From assembly GCA_963804995.1 (NCBI GenBank), contig CAWDSK010000003.1, positions 1,280,001 through 1,344,000 on the forward strand: 64,000 nt of DNA, given 5' to 3'. Origin of the DNA: an uncultured Acidobacteriota bacterium (GTDB lineage: Bacteria; Acidobacteriota; Terriglobia; UBA7540). The notes beneath the pieces were generated by a model that did no database searches, was not told where the DNA came from, and worked only from the letters and a program-made list of their open reading frames with translations. The first letter of the stretch is position 1; each line of letters begins with the position of its first letter. The translations under genes were made by a program, and so were the position numbers. Shown here one piece after another: positions 1,340 through 12,926 of the stretch.

Positions 1340-1564
1340 ATGTCAAAGGAAGCGGCCAAACACGATCACAACGCAGCAGCACACCACGAGCACGCGGCGA
1401 AGCACCATCGCGAAGCCGCCCGGCATCATGAGGCGGGTGACCACGAGGCAGCCGCCCACCACGCCCACACGGCGCAAGGACACGCGCACCACGCAACCCA
1501 TCATGCCGCCGAAGCCGCAAAACTGCACGTCGAGCATCATGGGCACAAGGCAGGGGGCAAATGA
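1340..1564 (+). CDS. Small His/Ala-rich protein, putative metal-binding
   Basis: 74 aa with repeated AAxHH/HHxxA motifs; SD-like AGGGGG upstream. Confidence 0.85.
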   Translation: MSKEAAKHDHNAAAHHEHAAKHHREAARHHEAGDHEAAAHHAHTAQGHAHHATHHAAEAAKLHVEHHGHKAGGK

Positions 1565-1676
1565 ACTGCATTGGAATTGGATAGTAGTTGCAAGGAGAGC
1601 GGGTTCCTCCCTTAGCGAGGAACCCGTTTCTCATCTGGGGCTCACTCGATCCGGGAGAACGCCTCCGAGAGGTCCC

Positions 1677-3020
1677 ATGGACCCTTCCACCGCTGAAGTC
1701 ATGCCCAACCTGCATGCCGACTCCGCCCCTTCCAGTCGAGCTGCCAGATACTGGCGCTGGCGTATTTTCATCATCACCTGGATCACCTATGCAGGGTTTT
1801 ACCTCTGCCGCAAGAACATCAGCGTGGTGATGCCGCTGCTCCAGCAAGATCGTGGGTACACCAACGCCCAGTTAGCAAAATTTGTCTTCGGTTACAGTCT
1901 GTTTTACACCGTCGGCCAGTTTGTTTGCGGGCTTCTTTCCGACCGTTTCGGGACACGCGTGGTAGTCGGCACTGGGCTCTTCGTGGTGGTTGGCTCGAAC
2001 CTGCTTCTGGGCTTTGGGTCTTCGCTCGGCTGGCTGATCCTTCTGGCTTGCCTGGCTGGCGCGGGACAATCCACCGGTTGGTCGGGACTGGTAAAGACCA
2101 TGGCCTGCTGGTTTCGCCCTACGGAACGGGGTGTGGTCATGGCGTGGTGGTGCACCAATTACGTGCTGGGCGGATTCCTCGCCACGGTATTTGCCACGTA
2201 CGTCGCCACCAGCGTTTGGTTGGTTCCGCGCTGGGGTTGGCGGCGCGGATTCTGGCTGCCCGCCTTACTGCTGTTGGTCATCGCCCTGGTCTATGTGTTC
2301 TTCGTGCGGAACAACCCCTCCGACGTCGGCCTCCCGGAGGTGGAAGACAACCCGGTTAAACCGGTCTCTGGCGTGGCCGCCCCCGCAACGTCCAGCACTG
2401 CCGGCGCGCCTCGATCGGCCGTGCGTCAGGTGCTCGCGGAGCCTACCTTGTGGCTCATTGGGTCCATGTATTTCTTCCTCATCCTCACCCGCTACGCGTT
2501 CCTCTTCTGGCTGCCGCTTTACATGACCCAGCATTTGAAGTATTCCGCGCAAGATGCGGGTTACACCTCATCGCTTTACGAACTGGTGGGTTTTCTCGGG
2601 GCTCTCATCGCCGGCTACGCTTCTGAGAAGCTTTTCGATTCCCGCCGCTTTCCGGTAGGAGCGCTGATGCTCTGGGGACTCGCCCTGACCAGTCTGATCC
2701 TGCCGAAACTCAGCGCCATGGGGCACCTCTGGAACGCGGTCGGCATTTCGTTGGTCGGCATCATGACCTACGGTCCTGACACGCTGATGTCGGGCGCGGC
2801 CGCTCAGGACGTCGGCTCCAAAGAAGGCGCCGCCACCGCTTCGGGTTTCATCGACGGCATCGGACACCTGGGCATGATCCTGTCCCCCTTCGTCGTGGCT
2901 TTCGTAACGGCACGCTATAGTTGGGATGTTCTCTTCTACCTCTTCGTGGTGCTTTCCTTGATCGCGGGTGGGATGCTGGCAACGCGCTGGAATTACAAGC
3001 GGGTAGCGCAGCAGAATTAG
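1677..3020 (+). CDS. MFS transporter, GlpT/UhpC (organophosphate:Pi antiporter)-like
   Basis: YAGFYLCRKN, GLLSDRFG, WFRPTERG, FLFWLPLY motifs; many TM segments; ATG 1677 with GAGAGG preferred over the ORF-track start that overlaps the His-rich gene. Confidence 0.9.
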   Translation: MDPSTAEVMPNLHADSAPSSRAARYWRWRIFIITWITYAGFYLCRKNISVVMPLLQQDRGYTNAQLAKFVFGYSLFYTVGQFVCGLLSDRFGTRVVVGTGLFVVVGSNLLLGFGSSLGWLILLACLAGAGQSTGWSGLVKTMACWFRPTERGVVMAWWCTNYVLGGFLATVFATYVATSVWLVPRWGWRRGFWLPALLLLVIALVYVFFVRNNPSDVGLPEVEDNPVKPVSGVAAPATSSTAGAPRSAVRQVLAEPTLWLIGSMYFFLILTRYAFLFWLPLYMTQHLKYSAQDAGYTSSLYELVGFLGALIAGYASEKLFDSRRFPVGALMLWGLALTSLILPKLSAMGHLWNAVGISLVGIMTYGPDTLMSGAAAQDVGSKEGAATASGFIDGIGHLGMILSPFVVAFVTARYSWDVLFYLFVVLSLIAGGMLATRWNYKRVAQQN

Positions 3021-3337: not shown

Positions 3338-3685
3338 TTCCGCTCGTCGCTACCACGCTTCACCGCCTTCCGTCGTCAAGAACATCAGCAGAAATCGGCG
3401 CCTCGGTGATGGTCTGCGGATGACCGCAAGAAGAATCTTAGCGCGCCAGCTTGCATGATGACCCCGGCCCGTCCGTAAACAATATGCTGTGGGTAAGGGA
3501 CTATGGCGCTGCTGCTGCCTCCATGCTCGCGCCGTGGCGAGGCACTTCCGCGGCAAGGCGACTTGCGGCCATGTGGTTACAGGCTGCGGAAGGTAGTTCC
3601 CCTTCTTCGCGCTACCCCCCAACGTTGAGTGGTCAATCTGACTGTTTTTTGTCTATAGCGACCGACTGGGAGGGGTCAAATCTTT

Positions 3686-4585
3686 TTACGACCAACCGTT
3701 CCACAGCTTGATTACGGCATCTATAAACGCTGATCCGTTTGCCTTGGGCCAACAGACAGGCGAGCCATCAAGCAGCAAATAGTACTGCTCATTCGCGCAA
3801 CGAAACTTGCTCCGGTCCTTTGTGTCGTCGAGCCACTTCAAGATGTTGTACACCCTCTCTGATTCATCGGACACAAAGTTCGGGTTGGGGACGTTATAGA
3901 GAAGTCCTTCGATGTAGTAGGACGGTGCGGTGCCATCTGCGATAACGCGATCCTCAACCAATTTCGACCGCATATTCTTGAACATTCGAACTGTCGGCTT
4001 GAAGCGGTTATTGATTGCCTGATGCTTCGTCGTGAGGTTCTCGCTGTGCTGATCCGGATAGTTGGCGATGAGGTTTCCGGTCGAATTTAAAAAACCTATT
4101 CCCAGGGTATAGCTTTCGTCCCACATGGAAATAAATTTGTTATAGCGGCGGTATTCATACGCGACCACTACGTCAGCACTTCGGCGAGAGTTATTCGCGT
4201 CGATCTTTATTGCCTTCGTGCCGGGCCTGACGGAATTACCAAAGGCAGTCTTGAGCGCTGATTGGACATGACTCTTGAAATTGTCATAGGGATAGTCGGC
4301 AGGGCCCGAATAATGATTATTGTAAGCGGCCAACTGATCGGGAGGCAGAGAGCTAAGGTCCCGAAAAAACGCGCCGTCATATCGAATGACAACATCCACA
4401 TCACTTTCCGCATAGATATTCGTGTCGTTGCCGTACGAGCCCTGCAGAAAGACTTTGAAGTTGCGGTCCTTATAGGAGGCAGTCGCTGCTTCCAGAGCGT
4501 TCTTCACGGTCGCATAGGTTTGCTTCGATTGAGTGACTGAGCCCTGGTGCGACCATCTTTCGAGTTGGTTCGCGGGAATGGCCAT
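3686..4585 (-). CDS. CBASS cyclic dinucleotide synthase (CD-NTase), CdnE-like
   Basis: FLQGSYGNDTNIYAESDVDVV (GS + DxD), third Asp in SADVV, NYPxxH, SYYIEGLLYNVP; 1 bp from the patatin stop. Confidence 0.9.
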   Translation of the reverse strand: MAIPANQLERWSHQGSVTQSKQTYATVKNALEAATASYKDRNFKVFLQGSYGNDTNIYAESDVDVVIRYDGAFFRDLSSLPPDQLAAYNNHYSGPADYPYDNFKSHVQSALKTAFGNSVRPGTKAIKIDANNSRRSADVVVAYEYRRYNKFISMWDESYTLGIGFLNSTGNLIANYPDQHSENLTTKHQAINNRFKPTVRMFKNMRSKLVEDRVIADGTAPSYYIEGLLYNVPNPNFVSDESERVYNILKWLDDTKDRSKFRCANEQYYLLLDGSPVCWPKANGSAFIDAVIKLWNGWS

Positions 4586-4586
4586 C

Positions 4587-5594
4587 TTACGCGTGGACTC
4601 CTCCTTGCGCGGGAAGATCTAGCAATTCTCTAAGCCGGGCTTCGTGCTTTGCGAATGAGTCTCCGCCGCGTTGGTAAAGCGTATTCAATTTCGAGAGATC
4701 GGATTCCATAAGGTCCGTCGCCATCTCAGGCTGCTGATACGTGTCATTAATTCGGACAGCTCGAATATCCCCAAACAGAATGCAACGCAATTGCTCCATC
4801 GATTCGGTGTTCACGTTGAGGGTTTTTTGGAGCAACTCAACGCCCGTGAAGCCAATCAAACATTTTGCAACGAGCGTGAAAAAATATTTTGGCGTGTACC
4901 AACGTTTCGGTTCCGGGTAAACCCCGACACCGACGCTGACAACTCGGAGATCGGCGGGGTCTTTTTGGAGGGCTCGAACCGCATCGGCGATTGCATACAA
5001 AGTCGGATTGTTGGCACAATACCCGCCGTCGATGAGTTCAACGTCGTTCCCTGCAATTGTCCTTATTGTGCATTTCTGAAAATAGGGATATGCCGAGCAA
5101 GAAGCACGCACTGCATCAGCTATGGTACAGCCGAAACCGGGCACGAATGTGTCTTTGCGACCATGGGCTTGTTGTTTGTCACCCTTAAAGATCATCGGCC
5201 GTTCCTCTTGCCAACGTGTTGCCACGATTCCGACGCTAGTCTTAACCTGATTGAAATTATTTTCCCCGAAGACCTGGCTGGCGAGCACGGCTAATGCTTT
5301 AGATTTTCTGCGTCGGGTCCAGCGCTTCATGACGGTAGGAACGTGCTCGCGGTAAAGCTTGTGAACCTCAGCGACCGTATATCCAAGTGCCAAAAGCGCG
5401 GCTATGATCGCGCCGGTGCTGGTTCCGAAAATAAGGTCGAAATGTTCGCACAGGCGTTGAGGCGCAACCATCGCCTCGATCTCGTTCAGAACTCCGAGCG
5501 TATAAAATCCCTTGGCGCCGCCACCGTCGAGCGAGAGCACGCGGCAAGGAGTACCAGTTATGGGCGACTCCGCTGTTTTGTGCATGCCTTCCAT
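4587..5594 (-). CDS. Patatin-like phospholipase, CBASS effector (CapE/CapV-like)
   Basis: LSLDGGGAKG, GTSTG nucleophile, DGG..ANNP; ATG 5594 with SD AGGGGGAG; coupled to CD-NTase. Confidence 0.92.
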   Translation of the reverse strand: MEGMHKTAESPITGTPCRVLSLDGGGAKGFYTLGVLNEIEAMVAPQRLCEHFDLIFGTSTGAIIAALLALGYTVAEVHKLYREHVPTVMKRWTRRRKSKALAVLASQVFGENNFNQVKTSVGIVATRWQEERPMIFKGDKQQAHGRKDTFVPGFGCTIADAVRASCSAYPYFQKCTIRTIAGNDVELIDGGYCANNPTLYAIADAVRALQKDPADLRVVSVGVGVYPEPKRWYTPKYFFTLVAKCLIGFTGVELLQKTLNVNTESMEQLRCILFGDIRAVRINDTYQQPEMATDLMESDLSKLNTLYQRGGDSFAKHEARLRELLDLPAQGGVHA

Positions 5595-5665
5595 TGACTC
5601 TCCCCCTGCTACTAGACCGACAGCGGCATTCAATTGCAATGGGACACAGTAAGTTTAGCACCGCA

Positions 5666-7415
5666 TTACTCGGTGACAAAATATGTGTCGTCAAGTCGTG
5701 GATCTGGCTCAAACCTTTCTGTCATAATGACAATTCTACCCACTTCCCGATGGAGGGCTTCGATCCTGTCGAGCGCCTGATTGACTCGGTCGCATTGCTC
5801 GAACGTTAAGGTAAAAACGATGCGCATCTAGCCACATTCTAGATTTGTGATAAGTGTCAAGAGTAGCAGACGCGAGTTCGCCGATTTCCCGTTCAATTTC
5901 ACCGCGTTTAATTTGAGGCCTCAACATCGGAATAACATCAACTGTCCGATCGTCAGATACAACAATTGCAAGTCTGCGCCGTTTGCTGGAAAGTACATAA
6001 CGCAGAGCTGAATTGTACCGTGACCCCCGGGACGGAGTGCACTCAGGCGCCGCTTCTCCGTCAAGTATCACGCCCACCGCATGACAGAAACCATGCTGAT
6101 CAATAATGATGGTTCCGTCGATCCAACTCACACGTTCCAGCAGCATCGGCGTCATCAGCACTGGACTAATCCCCATTCCCTGCCGAGCGAGGCGTTCCGA
6201 TTCATCCTGCGCGTCCTCCGCGACGACAATCATACTCCCGTGATGCTGATGTGCGACAGTTTTGAAAAGTGTCCAAGAATGGACACAGTCGTTGGTGGAT
6301 GCGTCTGGGAAGAGACGCTTGTAGTTGGCAGTAAATTGATCTTGGCTGATTGATTCCTGTGGCAGGCGGGGTTCGCGGTAACGGCTATACATGAGTACCT
6401 GGGTCCCGCATTGGAGTTCCCAGTGGTAATGGTCCAAGAAATTAATCGTGAAGGCATCTAGAGCTCCCTCATCGTGACCGTCCTTAAGCTTTCCTAAACC
6501 AAAAATCTCTTCCGAGTTTGCAATAAGCGCGACGTTTGAAGTCGCCATCTGGAGAACCTTTCGAGCCCATCTTGGCTGTCGAAAGGGAACCGGTACTTTG
6601 AAACGCACAAAATATTCGACCGATTCACTCTCCGGGTCGACAAGTACTAGGTGACCGGTTCCCCGTATGCCTTCGTAAAGCAGAGAGGAAATGATATTAA
6701 ATCTTTCGAATAGGTTATCATATGAGTACTTGTCGCCTATGAGGAGGGCTGGAATTCGCATGAAACCGTCGGCGGCATTATGGACGATTTCAGCAGGGCT
6801 CCGCATATCCGGGATTATGAATCTGCCAGGCTCGGGAGTCAGGAGTTCTTTACTAGCTTCCTCTAAAACGATCGAAATCGATGAATGAATTAGGCTCCTA
6901 TCGCCCTGTGGAAAATGCGGATCATTGGTAGCGGGAATTTTGAGGGGCGGGAATTGCGAGAAGATCGACTCAGGAACTTGGATCACCGGCACCACGTAGT
7001 AATCACCAACGGGGCGAGCTGAACCGCAGAACGACTGCACGCCATTCTTAACATCGTAGGGCTTCAATGCGTCGTGTACGGCGGTCGTAACGGAATCACG
7101 CCGAATGTTTTCAGGTTTGTCGCGCATAGACGGTTCATCACCGTAGAACATATTCTGCAATCGATGATTCTTGACGGTGTTTTCGATTGAGTCCAACAGA
7201 TTGTTAAATAAAGACAGCTGCCATTTTTCATCTTCTGGCTCAACGCAGATAGGATTGTTATTGATGCTTTGCGGCTTTCTGGCTCCGACCACAAGAACGT
7301 CCGGTTTAAGGCGGATTCCCAATTCATCGAATACATGCTCCGCAAGGAATTGAACGGACAACCTGAAGTGCGGTTGATATCCCCACATGAATAGCATAAT
7401 TCTGTGCTCTCTCAT
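5666..7415 (-). CDS. DisA_N/diadenylate cyclase-like protein with long N-terminal (putative sensor) region; +1 frameshift near 5800
   Basis: HGSMIVV, IDGTIIID, GVILDG, RGSRYNSALRY, VSDD correspond to DAC motifs (DGA, G-x-RHR, SEE). Track ORF stops at 5736 but the +1 frame continues EQCDRVNQALDRIE...DDTYFVTE* to 5666. Confidence 0.8.
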
Positions 7416-8323
7416 ATGTTTTAACTCTAAGTGATGGCGCCCGGTCGTTGCCTCGGACGCATGGTCACTATGCTACATCTGTTTTACACGTTTCCGTGCG
7501 GTGATTTATTCCACTGTGAGTGACGGTGCTCTCTGAAACAATCCACTTGGTCGTATTATGGCCTTGTCGGAAACTGGCCGCTGCCGTGTATACGTGACTC
7601 CTCAATAAGGAATTGGACCTGCCTCGTCTCCTTGAGTGTACGAACGCCGGGTTGCGGTTCAAATTACACTGACACACGAAATCTGTAGAGTCTGCTCTAG
7701 AGTTTTTGCCGCATCCCTGAGACTCTCAAGACCTGGCTCCCCTCAAACTGATGATTTCGGCGCCATTTTATCCCGGCGCTGACACGCCATCTGCTCACGG
7801 ACACCCGCTCCTCTGGGCGACGGGGGATTTCATTTCGCCAGAATTCGGTGCTTGACTTTGTTTACTTGTGAGGTATAATCTTAATCGTACCGTGCGGTCC
7901 GGCTCGGCAGGAAGACTCGGAGCGCGCGAGGCAGAGCCGGGCAATTGGGCAGGAAGGGAGTTATGTAGCCGCGGCGACACGAGGATTTCGCAGCGCCTTT
8001 ATGTCCGACCATGACGTTTTTCTCCCAAAGCCGAGAACATACTGAAAACAAAGGGCGGGGAGAGACAAATTTCGTTTCCCAAAGCCGAGAACATCCAGAA
8101 AACAAACCCACTTACCAGGCCTACCAAAAACGGGATATCGACCTGACAAAATGTCCTACAGAAAAAGACCTCCTTCCTCGCCCCAGGCCCACCGTTAAGC
8201 CGCTTTCAACTATCTAACTGGGCTACATTGGTTCGCCCCGCCGCAGCGGGTTCTCCCATATCGGTTATCGGTAGGATCGACACCAAGAATGAAGCATATT
8301 GAGTGGCCCGTAACAAGCGGTTT

Positions 8324-8390
8324 AACCCCTCACCCGCCCCGGCTGGTGAAAACGCCGGCTGCGGTCCACCCTCTCCCCTCGGAGAGGGCT
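8324..8390 (+). repeat. REP-like palindromic repeat, family B (CCCCTCACCC...CCCTCTCCCCTCGGAGAGGGC)
   Basis: Near-identical to 45745-45816 (inverted) and 56323-56394. Confidence 0.85.
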
Positions 8391-8534
8391 ATGCGTTTTC
8401 GGCTTGGTCCGATGAGGCCTTGACCCGATGGCCCATGCCCCCCACCGACCTCCCCCCGCCGTGACACACTTTCCCATATCGGTTATCGGTAGGTTGACAT
8501 CCAAACCTGAACCAAAATTCGGCTGGAAGTTTGA

Positions 8535-8605
8535 CAATCACCAATTCACCCAATCGCGAAATCACTCAATGACCCGATGATCCGATGACTCAATGGCCCG
8601 ATCTG
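8535..8605 (+). repeat. Degenerate octamer array (CAATGACC-like)
   Basis: caatcacc aattcacc caatcgcg aaatcact caatgacc cgatgatc cgatgact caatggcc. Confidence 0.75.
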
Positions 8606-8615
8606 GATCGATCGC

Positions 8616-9666
8616 TTGTTGGCGGCTGCCTTGGGCCTGCGGGGAGATTTCGTTCCAGACTTCCGCCTGATCGATTATCCGGTGGCGCTGATGAGCACTG
8701 ACCGGAGTCCGGCCCTGGACGGGACGCTCGGCAACACGGACCGTCTCAAGAGCGACCTGGCCGACCTGGGCGTCTTCGATGCGCGCATGTCAATGTACTT
8801 GCCTTTCCGCTTGCGCACCGCTGCGGTCATGGGATTTTCCGGCTATGAGGGGCGTCATTACAGTGTCTTCGAGCGTTTTGAAGCTGATATGGGACCGGCC
8901 GTGGACCTACAAAATCTCGTTGTGGCCCTGGCCCACAAATACGTGGCGTTAGGCCTGCTCTCCCACCAGCACATTCCCGATGACCCCTGCCTGGAAAGCG
9001 AGCGTCGCCAGATATTCTTCGGAGCAGCGATCGGCCTTCCCACTTTCTACGTGCGGCGCGAATCACCCAACGCCTTCCTGCGCCACATCGTGGAACGGAC
9101 CCACGGCGTGCGGGCCAGTCACCGTTATCCGGGTTACTTGCGAGTCCGCAACTTGGAATGTCAAAAGAGTCTCCTCACCATTCTGAAGGAAGACGCGGCC
9201 GACTTGATCGAGGCCTTGCAACTTCAAGAGATGATCCGCGACCTCGAGAACCGGCTGGATCACCCGGCGGAATGTTCATCGGCGGGCCGACTTACCCGCG
9301 GCATCCTACAGGTGGCCAGCGAGCGTTTTCCACTCAACACAGAGGCGCGGACCTTCAATCAGGCTGCGGAGACTTACTACCGCGGGCCTTTGCGCGAGCA
9401 GCACCTCCGTGAAGCCTTTGAAATTCTGGCCCGGGAATGCTGCGGGATTGAAGTTGAGGACCCTGAAGCGCTTGGCGCCATCCTGGGATCGAATAATCTT
9501 CGAGACTTTCCTTGAGAGGGCTTGTACGCAGGTGTGCCAGGAAACGATCACCCTGGAAGACCTGCGCCGCCTGACGAGCCTCACCCTTCTGAGTATTCAA
9601 CACGAGCAGAGGCTGGCGGAGAAGTACTGGCCTTCCGCCCACGTCCACCCTCTCCTCCGGGCATGA
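8616..9666 (+). pseudogene. 5'-truncated, frameshifted hypothetical protein preceding psd
   Basis: Protein-like ORF starting abruptly after the octamer array with no SD; +1 shift near 9500 joins it to ORF 9409-9666 whose TGA overlaps the psd ATG (ATGA). Confidence 0.65.
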
Positions 9667-10700
9667 AAATGACAGCGCACCAATACATAGTTCGGGACAC
9701 GGGCGCCGTCCGCACCGAACAACTCCAGGGTGACCGCCTGGTAGCCTGGCTTTACTCGCCCACGCTAGAGCGCTCACCCGCACTGTTTCGCCTCCTGACT
9801 GGCCGCGTATCTTCCAAGCTGCAGGCGTTCCTGCATTATGACACGGTGCTGGGATCTCATTGGGGCGGTACGCTGGGCTTTTTGCGGCGGCAGGGCATGG
9901 ATTTTGCGGAGTGCGTTGAGCCTGCAGGTAGCTTGCGAACTGCACGTCAGATCTTCGAACGGCAGATCCGCTACTGGCAGTGCCGCCCCATGTCCGATGA
10001 TCCGAAGGTCGTAGCCTCTCCGGCTGACTCCCGCCTACTCGTGGGCTCGCTGGCTGAAGCCTCCGGACTTTGGGTGAAAGGTAAGTTTTTCGACCTGGCA
10101 GAGTTGCTGGGGCGCGACCATCCTCATCGGCGTGCTTTCGAGGGGGGCGACTTCGCTGTGTTCCGGTTGACCCCCGACAAATACCACTACAACCACGTTC
10201 CCGCCGCTGGCGAAGTCGTCGACTTCTACGAGACCCCGGGCCTGTATCACTCGTGCAATCCGGGCGCTGTAGTCAGAGCCATCACACCGTTCTCCAAGAA
10301 CAAGCGGGTGGTGACGATTCTCGATACTGACGTGACCGGCGGCGCCGGGATTGGCTTGGTTGCCATGATCGAAGTGGCCGCCTTGATGATCGGTGAGGTT
10401 GTGCAATGCTACAGTGCTCATCAGTACTGTTCACCCCGGCCGGTTGAGCGCGGCATGTTTCTTGAGAAAGGCCAGCCCAAGAGCCTCTATCGGCCGGGTG
10501 GCAGCACCGACGTGCTGCTCTTCCAACCGAACCGCATCGACTTTGCTGCTGATCTCGTCGCCAACCTTCATCGAACAGATGTTCAAAGCCGCTTCTCACA
10601 GGGTTTCGGCCGCACTCTGGTGGAAACCGACGTGAAGGTGCGGTCGCCGATCGCCACTCGCCAGGCCACAATAGGGGAATGTGACACACCCCTGCTTTGA
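9663..10700 (+). CDS. psd: Phosphatidylserine decarboxylase family protein
   Basis: SPADSR, VKGKFF, FRLTPDKYHYNH, NKR, and self-cleavage GGST motif. Confidence 0.88.
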   Translation: MKMTAHQYIVRDTGAVRTEQLQGDRLVAWLYSPTLERSPALFRLLTGRVSSKLQAFLHYDTVLGSHWGGTLGFLRRQGMDFAECVEPAGSLRTARQIFERQIRYWQCRPMSDDPKVVASPADSRLLVGSLAEASGLWVKGKFFDLAELLGRDHPHRRAFEGGDFAVFRLTPDKYHYNHVPAAGEVVDFYETPGLYHSCNPGAVVRAITPFSKNKRVVTILDTDVTGGAGIGLVAMIEVAALMIGEVVQCYSAHQYCSPRPVERGMFLEKGQPKSLYRPGGSTDVLLFQPNRIDFAADLVANLHRTDVQSRFSQGFGRTLVETDVKVRSPIATRQATIGECDTPLL

Positions 10701-10711
10701 GGAGGCCTGTC

Positions 10712-11764
10712 ATGGCGAACTTCCTGTTTGAGGCCGCTCTGGGAGGGTTTTTCACTGCTCTGCTGGGTTGGGGCTTCCGCTTTCTGCCGGGAGAGAACTG
10801 GCAGATTTTCGCCGCCGTGCCCCGAGTGAAAGATGCCACCGGCCACTGGACGGGCCTCAACCTCACTTACTACGGCGTCCTGGTCGCCGCCGCTTACGTG
10901 CTGGGTACAGCCGTGATGTTCGTGCTGATGGGCTCTATCGGCATCCCCCCGTGGGGAACCTTCGCCCTCACGGCTTTCATCATCGCTGTCTGCGCGCCGG
11001 CCGCGCGCCTTATCGCCCGCCTGGTGGAGAAGAAGCGCTATACCTTCACGGTGGGGGGCGCGTCGTTTGTGGGCATCCTGATCCTGCCCTGGGTGATTTC
11101 TGCGCTCAACGCCCTCACCGCATGGCGATGGGGTTTCCGCATTCCACTGGTCGGCGCCTTGGCCGCGGTCTCGATCGCTTACGCCTTTGGTGAGGGTGCG
11201 GGCCGGCTCGCCTGCATAAGCTATGGTTGCTGCTATGGCAAGCCTCTTACTCAGATGTCTCCGCTGCTACAAAAGCTTTTCGAACGCGCTCATTTCGTCT
11301 TCGCTGGCAAGACCAAGAAAATCGCTTACGAAGCCGGGCTGGACGGTGAGTGTGTGGTCCCGGTGCAGGCGCTCAGCGCCGTCCTCTCTGTGGCTGCCGG
11401 ACTTGCCGGCACCGCGCTCTTTCTCGCCGGGCATCCCTGGGCAGCTTTGTGTCTCTCGCTGATCTTGACGCAAGCCTGGCGCTCAATTTCCGAGAGCCTG
11501 CGCGCCGACTACCGTGGAAGCGGAAAAACTTCCGCCTATCAGGTTATGGCAATCGCAGGAATTGTCTATCTGCTGCTGGTCGTTGCGCTCCTTCCCACGG
11601 CACCCACTCCTGAGCCGCAAGTTGTGACCGGCCTGCGCACACTTTGGAATCCAATCATGATTCTTTTCCTCGAACTCGCCTGGCTCGGGATGTTCCTCTA
11701 CACGGGGCGCAGCAGCGTGACGGGTTCCTCCCTCGCCTTTTACGTCCACCGAGAGCGTATCTGA
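10712..11764 (+). CDS. Divergent prolipoprotein diacylglyceryl transferase (Lgt)-family membrane protein
   Basis: TYYG, GRLACISYGCCYG, RSISESLRAD motifs; multiple TM segments; SD GGAGG. Confidence 0.75.
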   Translation: MANFLFEAALGGFFTALLGWGFRFLPGENWQIFAAVPRVKDATGHWTGLNLTYYGVLVAAAYVLGTAVMFVLMGSIGIPPWGTFALTAFIIAVCAPAARLIARLVEKKRYTFTVGGASFVGILILPWVISALNALTAWRWGFRIPLVGALAAVSIAYAFGEGAGRLACISYGCCYGKPLTQMSPLLQKLFERAHFVFAGKTKKIAYEAGLDGECVVPVQALSAVLSVAAGLAGTALFLAGHPWAALCLSLILTQAWRSISESLRADYRGSGKTSAYQVMAIAGIVYLLLVVALLPTAPTPEPQVVTGLRTLWNPIMILFLELAWLGMFLYTGRSSVTGSSLAFYVHRERI

Positions 11765-11860: not shown

Positions 11861-12926
11861 GTGATACTCGTCCTGCAGGCACGGATCCGGTTGCCTGCGG
11901 TTTCAGCCGTTTTTGATTGCGGAGACTCAATTAGGAGCCATCCTCAGCCGGCGCGGCGAGTTCTGCCGCGCACCTTTGAGGTCGCTTTCCCAACGATGCA
12001 CAGATTTCCCCCGGCGACGCCCAGCACTAATCCCACCTGGGGCTGCCCGCGAATTGCTCAACAGATTGCCTGGGCGTTCGACATCCCCATCGACAAAGAC
12101 GTGGTTCGAAGGATTCTCGCCCGTCACCACCGACCGGGACAGGGCTCTGGTGGTCCATCCTGGCTGACCTTCATTGGACACCTGAAGGACAGCCTCTGGA
12201 GTCTGGATCTGTTCAGGTGCGAATCGGCCACGTTGCGGACCCACTGGGTCCTGGTCGTCATGGATCAGTACACTCGTCGGATCATTGGGTTCGGCGTCCA
12301 TGCCGGAACCGTCGATGGTGTCGGGTTTTGCCGGATGTTCAACCGCGCGATTCGATGGCAACGCTGGATGCCGAAGTACCTTAGCTGCGACCACGATCCC
12401 CTTTATCGGTTTCATCAATGGCAAGCCAATCTGTGCATCCTGGAGGTGGCCGAAATCAAGACCGTGCCCTACGTCCCCTCGTCCCATCCCTTTGTGGAGC
12501 GGTTGGTCGGCACCCTCCGCCGAGAGTGCTTGGATCATACGCTGTTTTGGACAACTGCCGATCTCGAAAGCAAGCTGCTCGATTTCAAAACCTATTTTAA
12601 CCATCATTGCACCCATAACGCACGGGCGGGGAGACCACCAGACAACGTGCCGACTCGGCCGGCCGCGAACCTTCAATCTTCTCGATGGGAATCTCACTGC
12701 CGAGGACTGTATCAAACACCGATGGCGGCTTAATCCCCCACAGACTCTGGTCGCTGTCGTAGGCCCGAGAACTTGGCACTGCCAGACTTCCTGATTCCGT
12801 CTCTGGATCAGAGAAGCCCGTTCGCCGATTGGACCGTGTCGCCGCGAGGCATTCCCGTCATTCGAGGTTTCTCAGCTTCCGCCATCGCCTAAGAAACAGG
12901 CTTCAATATCAATTCGCCAGCCCACA
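11861..12926 (+). mobile_element. Degenerate IS with rve/integrase-core DDE transposase (N-terminus lost)
   Basis: NPTWGCPRIA HTH, WSLDLF, VVMDQYTRRI, DHD, VERLVGTLRRECLD; putative right end ...ATCAATTCGCCAGCCCACA at 12926. Confidence 0.75.

Follow-up and report, generated by a model that had tools for sequence, protein, structure and literature searches.

A DS-2 / CBASS-DAC anti-phage locus on an Acidobacteriota contig and the portability of its diadenylate cyclase gene

Why would an anti-phage operon that already encodes one nucleotide cyclase carry a second, of unrelated fold? This question is raised by a locus in a 64,000-nucleotide (nt) stretch of contig CAWDSK010000003.1 from an uncultured Acidobacteriota bacterium (hereafter, the window). 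Here, three co-oriented minus-strand genes, evident from the listing of open reading frames (ORFs) and their translations, encode in order a diadenylate cyclase (DAC), a patatin-like phospholipase and a CD-NTase (cGAS/DncV-like nucleotidyltransferase). Judged from sequence, the locus is the known DS-2 / CBASS-DAC (Liu-DS2) anti-phage system, published in 2025-2026, and is not new. This identification is made because all three proteins exceed the cut-offs of their NCBIfam equivalogs: 684.6 bits versus 630 on NF053872 (DS2_3) for the DAC protein, 477.4 versus 400 on NF053870 (DS2_1) for the patatin, and 418.4 versus 350 on NF053871 (DS2_2) for the CD-NTase. A preliminary description of this DNA had regarded the DAC as a component not established for CBASS (a system of anti-phage signaling based on cyclic oligonucleotides); that claim of novelty fails, because the system has already been named and partly characterized. 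On its own, the finding is the rediscovery of a validated system and opens no new question; what it adds is a member of DS-2 from the environment, probably non-proteobacterial, whose gene order is different. Our comparisons sharpen the question left by the papers, namely what DS-2C, the DAC protein of the system, is for. We find the DAC gene to be a portable module, not a fixed part of CBASS.

A type I CBASS joined to a diadenylate cyclase

DS-2 was described as an E. coli operon of phospholipase, cGAS-like enzyme and DAC that protects against phage (DeWeirdt, Mahoney and Laub, Science 2026, PMC13092281; DefensePredictor). Mutation of either of two DAC catalytic residues abolishes the defense, and 15 of 30 DAC homologs adjoin a CBASS (PMC13092281). 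A paper in Nucleic Acids Res 2026 (gkag308, PMC13069673) gives the same system the name CBASS-DAC (Liu-DS2). There it protects against five phages, at low multiplicity of infection only, and requires those effector residues that bind the signal; a DAC mutant loses defense against T5 and Rao1, and a cGAS mutant shows a minor effect (PMC13069673). These data suggest that in the tested E. coli system the DAC is the main source of signal rather than an ancillary part. Three DS-2C homologs are active in vitro, and cyclic di-AMP (c-di-AMP) was identified by liquid chromatography-mass spectrometry for two of them; the enzymes make 3'3'-c-di-AMP, and the role of DS-2C is left open (Ragucci, Haley, Kranzusch, bioRxiv 10.64898/2026.08.10.743927). 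The family has also been named CdaG and noted beside cassettes of a CD-NTase and a 2TM-beta protein (Nabhani, Sullivan et al., bioRxiv 10.64898/2026.08.10.743972).

The window operon shares with DS-2 / CBASS-DAC the same three protein families, the DS-2C layout of DACNG, DACNH, DAC and C-terminal element, and a type I organization with a patatin effector and without Cap2/Cap3 or HORMA genes. Identity to proteobacterial members is ~55%. The patatin probably starts at the ATG at 5594, behind a Shine-Dalgarno sequence, GGGGGAGAG (the longest ORF begins at TTG 5639). It has the GGGxxG, G-T-S-T-G and D-G-G motifs and matches Pfam Patatin (3.1e-29) and, over its full length, the PADLOC model PDLC00755 for a CBASS phospholipase effector (8.7e-152). 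The CD-NTase matches the PADLOC oligonucleotide cyclase model PDLC00788, again over its full length (1.8e-121), and Pfam SMODS below threshold only; its active-site pattern GS...D-x-D...D (QGSYG, ESDVDVV, SADVVV) consists of residues that are invariant in 13 homologs. Among the flanking ORFs, Pfam and PADLOC find no match of the Cap2, Cap3, HORMA or TRIP13 kind. Thus, the locus has the CD-NTase and effector of a type I CBASS without the genes that mark type II (Cap2/Cap3) or type III (HORMA/TRIP13). In all of this the preliminary description is borne out: it had recognized a patatin/CD-NTase CBASS of type I lacking these genes, and its three AT-richer genes, their coordinates, the frameshift-repaired DAC and the gaps (71 nt from the repaired DAC stop at 5666 to the patatin ATG, and 1 nt from the patatin stop to the CD-NTase) agree with the ORFs, the GC content and the alignments. 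Like canonical type I CBASS of the CapV/DncV type, the operon unites a CD-NTase with a patatin phospholipase, and infection would be expected to abort through damage to the membrane. Two features set it apart. The patatin scores 124 bits on CBASS_lipase (cut-off 200) and the CD-NTase 41 (cut-off 200), so both belong to subfamilies other than those of the CapV/DncV type; and there is an extra cyclase, of unrelated fold, which gives the essential signal in the tested homolog.

In our reading, which we consider quite probable, this genome gained the locus by horizontal transfer as a copy of DS-2 / CBASS-DAC, in which a type I CBASS is joined to the large soluble cyclase DS-2C and the two cyclases would serve as alternative inputs to one effector. 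DS-2C would be held off by its DACNG domain and a dead DAC part until infection. Its N-terminal part would then sense a cue, whereupon 3'3'-c-di-AMP would be made, as published for homologs. The patatin would be activated by c-di-AMP and, for other phages, by the product of the CD-NTase, and the activated phospholipase would degrade the membrane and abort the infection, as published for the E. coli system. The c-di-AMP signal would be private to the system, because the organism appears to be without a canonical DAC: a six-frame search of its 7.55-Mb genome (92% complete) with the DisA_N model, PF02457, yields no match. Most genomes sampled from the host phylum, 88 of 101 (the unpublished G024 and G049 included), do have canonical DACs, which is one more difference from the published DS-2; among other sampled genomes of the host's own class, 2 of 7 have one. 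Pseudomonadota are unlike the host phylum in the frequency of canonical DACs.

The circuit of two cyclases and one effector had been anticipated correctly, and for the DAC the preliminary description had offered a second input, a threshold or a decoy/guard signal. The first agrees with the DAC mutants, the cGAS mutant and the Acb1 data published for the homolog; the last does not fit, because loss of a guard signal triggers the effector and here loss of signal abolishes defense. In a guard circuit like that of Panoptes, Panoptoo or PanDA, c-di-AMP made constitutively by DS-2C would restrain the effector or soak up phage sponges, and its removal by a phage would fire immunity. Minimal DACs do work in this way with Cap15-like effectors (bioRxiv 10.64898/2026.08.10.743927, 10.64898/2026.08.10.743972), purified DS-2C homologs are active without an added phage cue (bioRxiv 10.64898/2026.08.10.743927), and five loci described below pair a large DAC with a Cap15-type effector only. 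Panoptoo and PanDA also resemble the window locus in that their anti-phage effector, of a CBASS type, receives a cyclic dinucleotide from an enzyme of DAC fold. Their PanS, however, is a constitutive enzyme of ~150 amino acids (aa) without sensor domains, which represses the S2TM-beta effector PanE (bioRxiv, Aug 2026), whereas the window DAC has 559-582 aa with DACNG and DACNH, and its partner is a patatin, not a Cap15-like protein. For a constitutive decoy, the ~370 sensor-like residues of DS-2C would be superfluous. The published DS-2 homolog, moreover, acts as a positive signal: in the E. coli system, defense is lost, not triggered, in DAC catalytic mutants and in the presence of the nuclease Acb1 (PMC13092281, PMC13069673), with Acb1 suppressing CBASS-DAC immunity and the sponges Tad1, Tad2 and Acb2 having no effect (PMC13069673). 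Both kinds of partner, patatin and Cap15, fit subfamilies of CBASS effectors over their full length, and the same patatin and CD-NTase subfamilies are also seen as CBASS loci of two genes where no DAC lies nearby. A guard or decoy role is therefore improbable.

The cyclase domain and the break near its C-terminus

Several observations weigh against reading the locus as an acquired DS-2 copy with two inputs. Its gene order, DAC-patatin-CD-NTase (C-A-B), differs from that of the prototype, patatin-CD-NTase-DAC (A-B-C); because order varies among relatives, we take the prototype order as typical, not defining. Pfam DisA_N (PF02457) does not match the DAC protein at E<=0.1, and when the family alignment was run as a sequence profile against the PDB, no DAC came up, the sole match being unrelated (E 0.073). 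The RHR motif reads RYN, alongside DGT for DGA. As assembled, the gene does not encode a full-length DS-2C of ~580 aa. The DAC-first lineage formed by the window and its closest relative, L058, may be decaying, because the patatin of L058 is a pseudogene. Finally, linkage was counted in genomes by way of the DAC and in metagenomes by way of the CD-NTase, and these counts are not comparable as frequencies.

Because Pfam DisA_N misses the protein, its assignment as a DAC rests on fold. An AlphaFold2 (AF2) model of residues 372-537, built from a 32-sequence alignment, has a mean predicted local distance difference test (pLDDT) score of 88.4. Foldseek returns 71 matches to it at E<=1e-3, among them DacA, DisA, CdaA and CdaM, with template modeling (TM) scores of 0.55-0.66; the best is 6gyx_B (E 1.1e-6, TM 0.61/0.66). 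At the level of this model, the DAC fold of the catalytic domain is confirmed. The DisA_N domain of the preliminary description thus holds as a fold and fails as a Pfam match. Its reading of the motifs DGT, RGSRYNSA and SDD as variants was correct, and these are invariant or nearly so across the family: D433, G434, R463, G464, R466, N468, S469, S487 and D489 are invariant in both DAC alignments, and T435 and S465 in the 18-sequence set only. Nine canonical DAC domains of the same phylum were aligned with the family, profile against profile; this alignment, statistically weak at E 0.031, sets GSMIVV against GALIV, IDGT against HDGA, SRGSRYNS against LGTRHRAA and VVSDD against VVSEE, which would bring the DGx, GxR and S-acidic-acidic motifs into the register of canonical DGA, GTRHRAA and SEE.

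The N-terminal region, where the preliminary description had proposed a profile search, contains DACNG and DACNH. For residues 1-345 the AF2 model has a pLDDT of 86.8, and Foldseek finds nothing at E<=1e-3. With VIA-align, the DACNH part (~219-345) has a DAC fold: Z is 9.5 with 2fb5_A, 8.8 with DacM 7dg0_A (root-mean-square deviation 3.4 over 115 residues) and 8.6 with DisA 3c1y_A. DACNG gives weak matches of common arrangement (Roadblock, GAF, solute-binding-like), whose Z of 5-6.5 is too low for naming a fold. On these models, DS-2C has a DACNG domain in front of a tandem of two DACs, one dead and one live. It resembles DisA, CdaA/DacA and CdaM in its catalytic fold and aligned motifs and differs from these housekeeping DACs in its tandem, in the lack of a helix-hairpin-helix (HhH) or transmembrane module, and in its defense context; with DGT and RYN motifs and no match to PF02457, it falls outside the housekeeping DisA_N group.

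A further difference from DS-2 is that the window DS-2C gene is frameshifted near its end. DAC homologs have 572-601 aa, mostly 581, with a conserved tail that is absent from the window ORF. In the window this tail is encoded in another frame (ORF 5827..5666), still open and family-like. The break lies after residue 537, from where the as-assembled ORF continues out of frame to a stop at 5736. Accordingly, NF053872 is split over two frames, at positions 1-536 and 531-576 (38 bits for the second part), and the alignments with homologs of 581-583 aa (P0005, 82% identical, P0006 and P0065) break at "...HRFYLN - x - EQCDRVN...". The DNA reads AAC GTTC GAG (5807-5798), with four bases where relatives have one codon. 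L058 has AAC CGT GAG, and a 262-nt peat-metagenome contig, ~96.5% identical, has one base fewer at 5802, a single T instead of TT. These contigs come from relatives, not from the source organism; we found no sequencing run with the window's own sequence, the best run sharing 0.07 of words.

Is the frameshift real? Long ORFs elsewhere in the window (726-887 aa) are intact, so the assembly is not error-ridden, and the site is just TT rather than a long homopolymer; both favor a real change. On the other hand, the shifted frame is open and as conserved as the remaining protein, which favors an assembly error or a very recent event and means that any mutation would be very recent. Through this 1-nt insertion, the window copy may be defective, or it may act simply as a CBASS of two genes. 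In the broader form of this idea, the locus is a decaying or disabled copy, in which a real frameshift inactivates DS-2C and leaves a remnant, with patatin and CD-NTase working as a CBASS or nothing working at all. We regard this as a serious prospect, albeit one somewhat more likely to be wrong than right. The insertion relative to the ~96.5% identical contig falls at the exact site that homologs confirm, and of 40 full-length DAC loci, 37 retain the ~45 residues that are lost here. In the remaining three, L001, L033 and L044, the DAC gene is itself broken, and close CD-NTase relatives, L059-L061, have no DAC. In L058, whose DAC and CD-NTase are 82% and 88% identical to those of the window and which shares the DAC-first order, the DAC (a 592-aa ORF) and CD-NTase are intact, and the patatin (2030-2657) has lost ~450 nt internally and acquired several 1-nt indels. 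Against decay, an assembly error would account for the extra base as well, the conserved and open shifted frame leaves little time for decay, and the DACNG, DACNH and DAC domains are untouched.

Linkage and exchange of the cyclase gene

In our genome census we used the DAC family as bait, took one genome per species, and assigned neighbors by tblastn, PADLOC and Pfam, which gave 46 DAC loci. Patatin and CD-NTase of the window's types accompany the DAC in 22 of these, a Cap15-type two-transmembrane (2TM) effector and a CD-NTase in 10, Cap15 and a 30-aa CD-NTase remnant in one (L037, 5245-5334), a CD-NTase only in one (L001), and Cap15 only in five (L012, L017, L039, L040, L042). Two have no CBASS part (L034, L044) and five are unevaluable (L020, L027, L043, L045, L046). 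A CBASS-type partner is thus found within 3.5 kb in 39 of the 41 evaluable DAC loci, across many phyla, which excludes chance adjacency and bears out the conserved linkage that the preliminary description had suggested counting. The usual order with patatin and CD-NTase is patatin-CD-NTase-DAC; the genes are divergent in L011 and L013 and 3 kb apart in L038, and besides the window only L028, L033, L041 and L058 have the DAC first among three-gene loci, the first three of these belonging to clades other than that of the window and L058.

The idea that the DAC is an unrelated defense or signaling gene which happens to lie beside a type I CBASS is already contradicted by these counts, and we give it next to no credence. 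It could appeal to the variable order and orientation and to the metagenome census, in which the CD-NTase served as bait: among the best 80 of 504 confirmed loci, 16 have a DAC, 34 (of 50 evaluable) have none and 30 are unevaluable. A locus was scored as having none when at least 600 nt were available on both sides, and 26 of the 34 have at least 1800 nt. For CD-NTases at least 60% identical to that of the window, again among the best 80 of 504, the DAC is present in 2 loci and absent from 20. Yet PADLOC finds no other defense gene beside the window operon, and the published mutants show the genes acting together (PMC13092281, PMC13069673).

Some loci stand out by their arrangement. In L034 (2373-12472), a full-length DS-2C-type DAC stands alone between the bacteriophage exclusion (BREX) genes pglX and pglZ/brxL, and there is no CBASS effector or CD-NTase within 3.5 kb of it. 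Decayed forms are found as well, among them L037 with its CD-NTase remnant. In L001 (6001-8647) and L125 (2415-5058), the DAC is directly followed by the CD-NTase, without a patatin, and the L001 DAC has an in-frame stop. L023 (4916-6004) has a single ORF that fuses the N-terminal half of a CD-NTase to the C-terminal half of a 2TM protein, which implies a deletion. The only match in a viral collection, L057 (790-3923, on a 34.9-kb viral contig of IMG/VR), has a CD-NTase 33% identical to that of the window and, 740 nt away, a full-length DS-2C-type DAC.

Patatin-type members are also found outside the Pseudomonadota, in Acidobacteriota (L018, L031) and in a Caldisericota metagenome-assembled genome (L035), taxa being as labeled in the records. 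These members point to a wider distribution than the "exclusively Pseudomonadota" stated for DS-2, which the authors put down to sampling (PMC13069673). DS-2C enzymes of Bacteroidota have been used as well (bioRxiv 10.64898/2026.08.10.743927).

Trees of the two cyclases show the DAC to be portable. On a CD-NTase tree of 96 sequences, from a quick search, the DAC must have changed between present and absent at least 8-9 times; branches with good support force 5 of these changes. The window and L058 lie inside a supported clade of seven, of which three lack a DAC. A DAC tree of 53 rows, also quick, used no mixture model and had flags on some long branches; it groups the window and L058 with L018 and L126, divides the Cap15-only DACs between two clades that lie apart, and nests the two DACs that accompany Cap15 PDLC00686 and a CD-NTase among patatin-linked DACs. 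The clearest case is that of L002 (4132-7728) and L006 (4110-7728). Their DACs are 86% identical over 576 aa, whereas L002 has Cap15 with a PDLC00772-type CD-NTase and L006 has a patatin with a PDLC00788-type CD-NTase, the two CD-NTases being 23% identical over 173 aa. This points, as far as sequences can tell, to a recent exchange of the entire CBASS partner. Partner swapping of this kind argues for a diffusible signal. It also bears on the possibility of a cascade, in which c-di-AMP from DS-2C would activate or prime the CD-NTase and only the CD-NTase product would reach the effector. A cascade would agree with the tight linkage of the two cyclase genes, seen in 33 of 41 evaluable loci (34 with the L037 remnant). 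Still, near-identical DACs accompany CD-NTases that are just 23% identical, cGAS mutation has a minor effect in CBASS-DAC (PMC13069673), and DAC and Cap15 occur as a pair in genomes without a detectable CD-NTase. We judge a cascade very improbable, even more so than a guard.

The DAC thus behaves as a plug-in signal module, one that loci gain and lose, that is exchanged between CBASS cassettes unrelated to each other, and that may be accompanied by just an effector. This behavior favors two sensors feeding one effector, as in the reading we prefer, over a fixed ancillary role. The pairs of DAC and effector alone are the five Cap15-only loci: L012 (5268-7750) and L017 (5294-7750) in Methylococcales, and L039, L040 and L042 (6001-8365) in Moraxellaceae. 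Housekeeping genes flank them, the effector is of the Cap15_CD_rec 2TM type, and the DACs are full-length and DS-2C-type. In Moraxellaceae the pair is kept across genera, with an effector identity of 58-61%. A DS-2B-type CD-NTase profile matches in none of the five Cap15-only genomes, the SMODS profile finds a CD-NTase elsewhere in the genome in two of five, and the PDLC00772 profile finds none in the four genomes searched; the genomes of L012, L040 and L042 have no CD-NTase by the three profiles. Five DAC loci that do have a CD-NTase served as positive controls; the DS-2B-type profile detects it in four of them and SMODS in two, and PDLC00772 matches the L002 genome.

These pairs raise the possibility that the large DAC of DS-2C type works autonomously as a portable sensor-synthase and addresses CBASS-type effectors directly, and that DAC and Cap15 form a working "DAC-only CBASS", a proposal which we hold tentatively and whose prospects are nearly balanced, leaning slightly to the negative. 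If it were true, the CD-NTase of three-gene operons would be an optional second sensor, patatin and Cap15 alike would read 3'3'-c-di-AMP, and the paired CD-NTases would make the same or a cross-recognized ligand. In PMC13092281, PMC13069673 and bioRxiv 10.64898/2026.08.10.743972 the DAC is described only beside CBASS that include a CD-NTase, and in the main texts consulted on DACNG, CdaG and CBASS-DAC we found no description of a form lacking the CD-NTase. Portability and the DAC/Cap15 pairs are in agreement with the published finding that the DAC, and not the cGAS-like enzyme, is the essential source of signal. They also agree with the report that a TIR-SAVED effector of CBASS can read c-di-AMP from a host DAC (bioRxiv 10.1101/2025.06.19.660554). 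What value remains comes from the comparative view of the DAC, as a module that can be swapped and may be self-sufficient, and from the pairs of DAC and Cap15 free of a CD-NTase; L002 versus L006 and the DAC/Cap15 loci offer concrete comparison pairs.

Probable acquisition and surroundings of the operon

The composition and rarity of the operon suggest that it came from elsewhere. Its GC content is 0.48-0.54 across 3501-7500, compared with 0.58-0.63 in both flanks. In the host phylum, DS2_2 exceeds its cut-off in 1 of 401 sampled genomes, that of the window itself, which is too sparse for testing co-occurrence and fits with recent horizontal acquisition. Low GC and this rarity together point to a foreign origin. 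The right flank (8616-11764) gives only two short DNA matches, of 34 and 43 nt, in 12 genomes of the same genus. Coordinates are collected in Table 1.

Table 1. Features of the operon and its surroundings in the window
Feature	Coordinates	Strand	Basis or remark
DS-2C (CdaG-type) DAC gene	7415..5666 repaired; 7415..5736 as assembled (559 aa)	-	ORF/alignment
DS-2C first-frame part, residues 1-537	5805..7415	-	Pfam, NF053872, DAC fold
DACNG domain, residues ~10-219	7388..6759	-	Pfam 1.4e-59
DACNH domain, residues ~234-336	6716..6408	-	Pfam 5.4e-26
Catalytic DAC domain and two helices, residues ~372-537	6302..5805	-	AF2 model, Foldseek
Frameshift site in DS-2C gene, GTTC	5801..5804	-	Homolog alignment, NF053872 split
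Conserved C-terminal ~45 residues of DS-2C and stop (EQCDRVNQALDRIEAL...TYFVTE, stop)	5666..5800	-	Shifted frame
DAC-patatin spacer, 71 nt, Shine-Dalgarno GGGGGAGAG 5 nt before ATG	5595..5665	-	Sequence
DS-2A patatin-like phospholipase effector, 335 aa from ATG	4587..5594	-	Pfam, PADLOC, NCBIfam
DS-2B CD-NTase, 299 aa	3686..4585	-	PADLOC, NCBIfam
Major facilitator superfamily (MFS) transporter gene	1428-3020		Neighbor of operon
Stretch without ORF >=80 aa, 1.2 kb	7416-8615		Upstream of operon
Putative phosphatidylserine decarboxylase operon	from 8616		
Integrase gene of insertion sequence (IS) type (rve / rve_3)	11861-12733	+	4.4 kb from operon
Reverse transcriptase, 478 aa	47210-48646	-	RVT_1 1.7e-39; PADLOC RT 7e-65

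Within the operon, a scan found no terminator-like site in the DAC-patatin spacer, and there is a single, weak promoter-like match at 5679..5652; over the region, the promoter and terminator scans are at the level of shuffled sequence (5 versus 4.5 and 5 versus 5.1). The spaces that flank the operon hold only ORFs of at most 137 aa. In the 1.2-kb stretch upstream, motifs are repeated: CCTACCGATAACCGATATGGGA occurs near 8493 and again near 8274, and ATGTTCTCGGCTTTGGGA near 8094 and again near 8040. The IS-type integrase is the sole mobile-element gene seen near the operon. Among the window ORFs scanned with PADLOC, no further defense gene adjoins the operon, and the only other match is the reverse transcriptase, ~40 kb away, which resembles the enzyme of a group II intron or retroelement and is unrelated to the operon.

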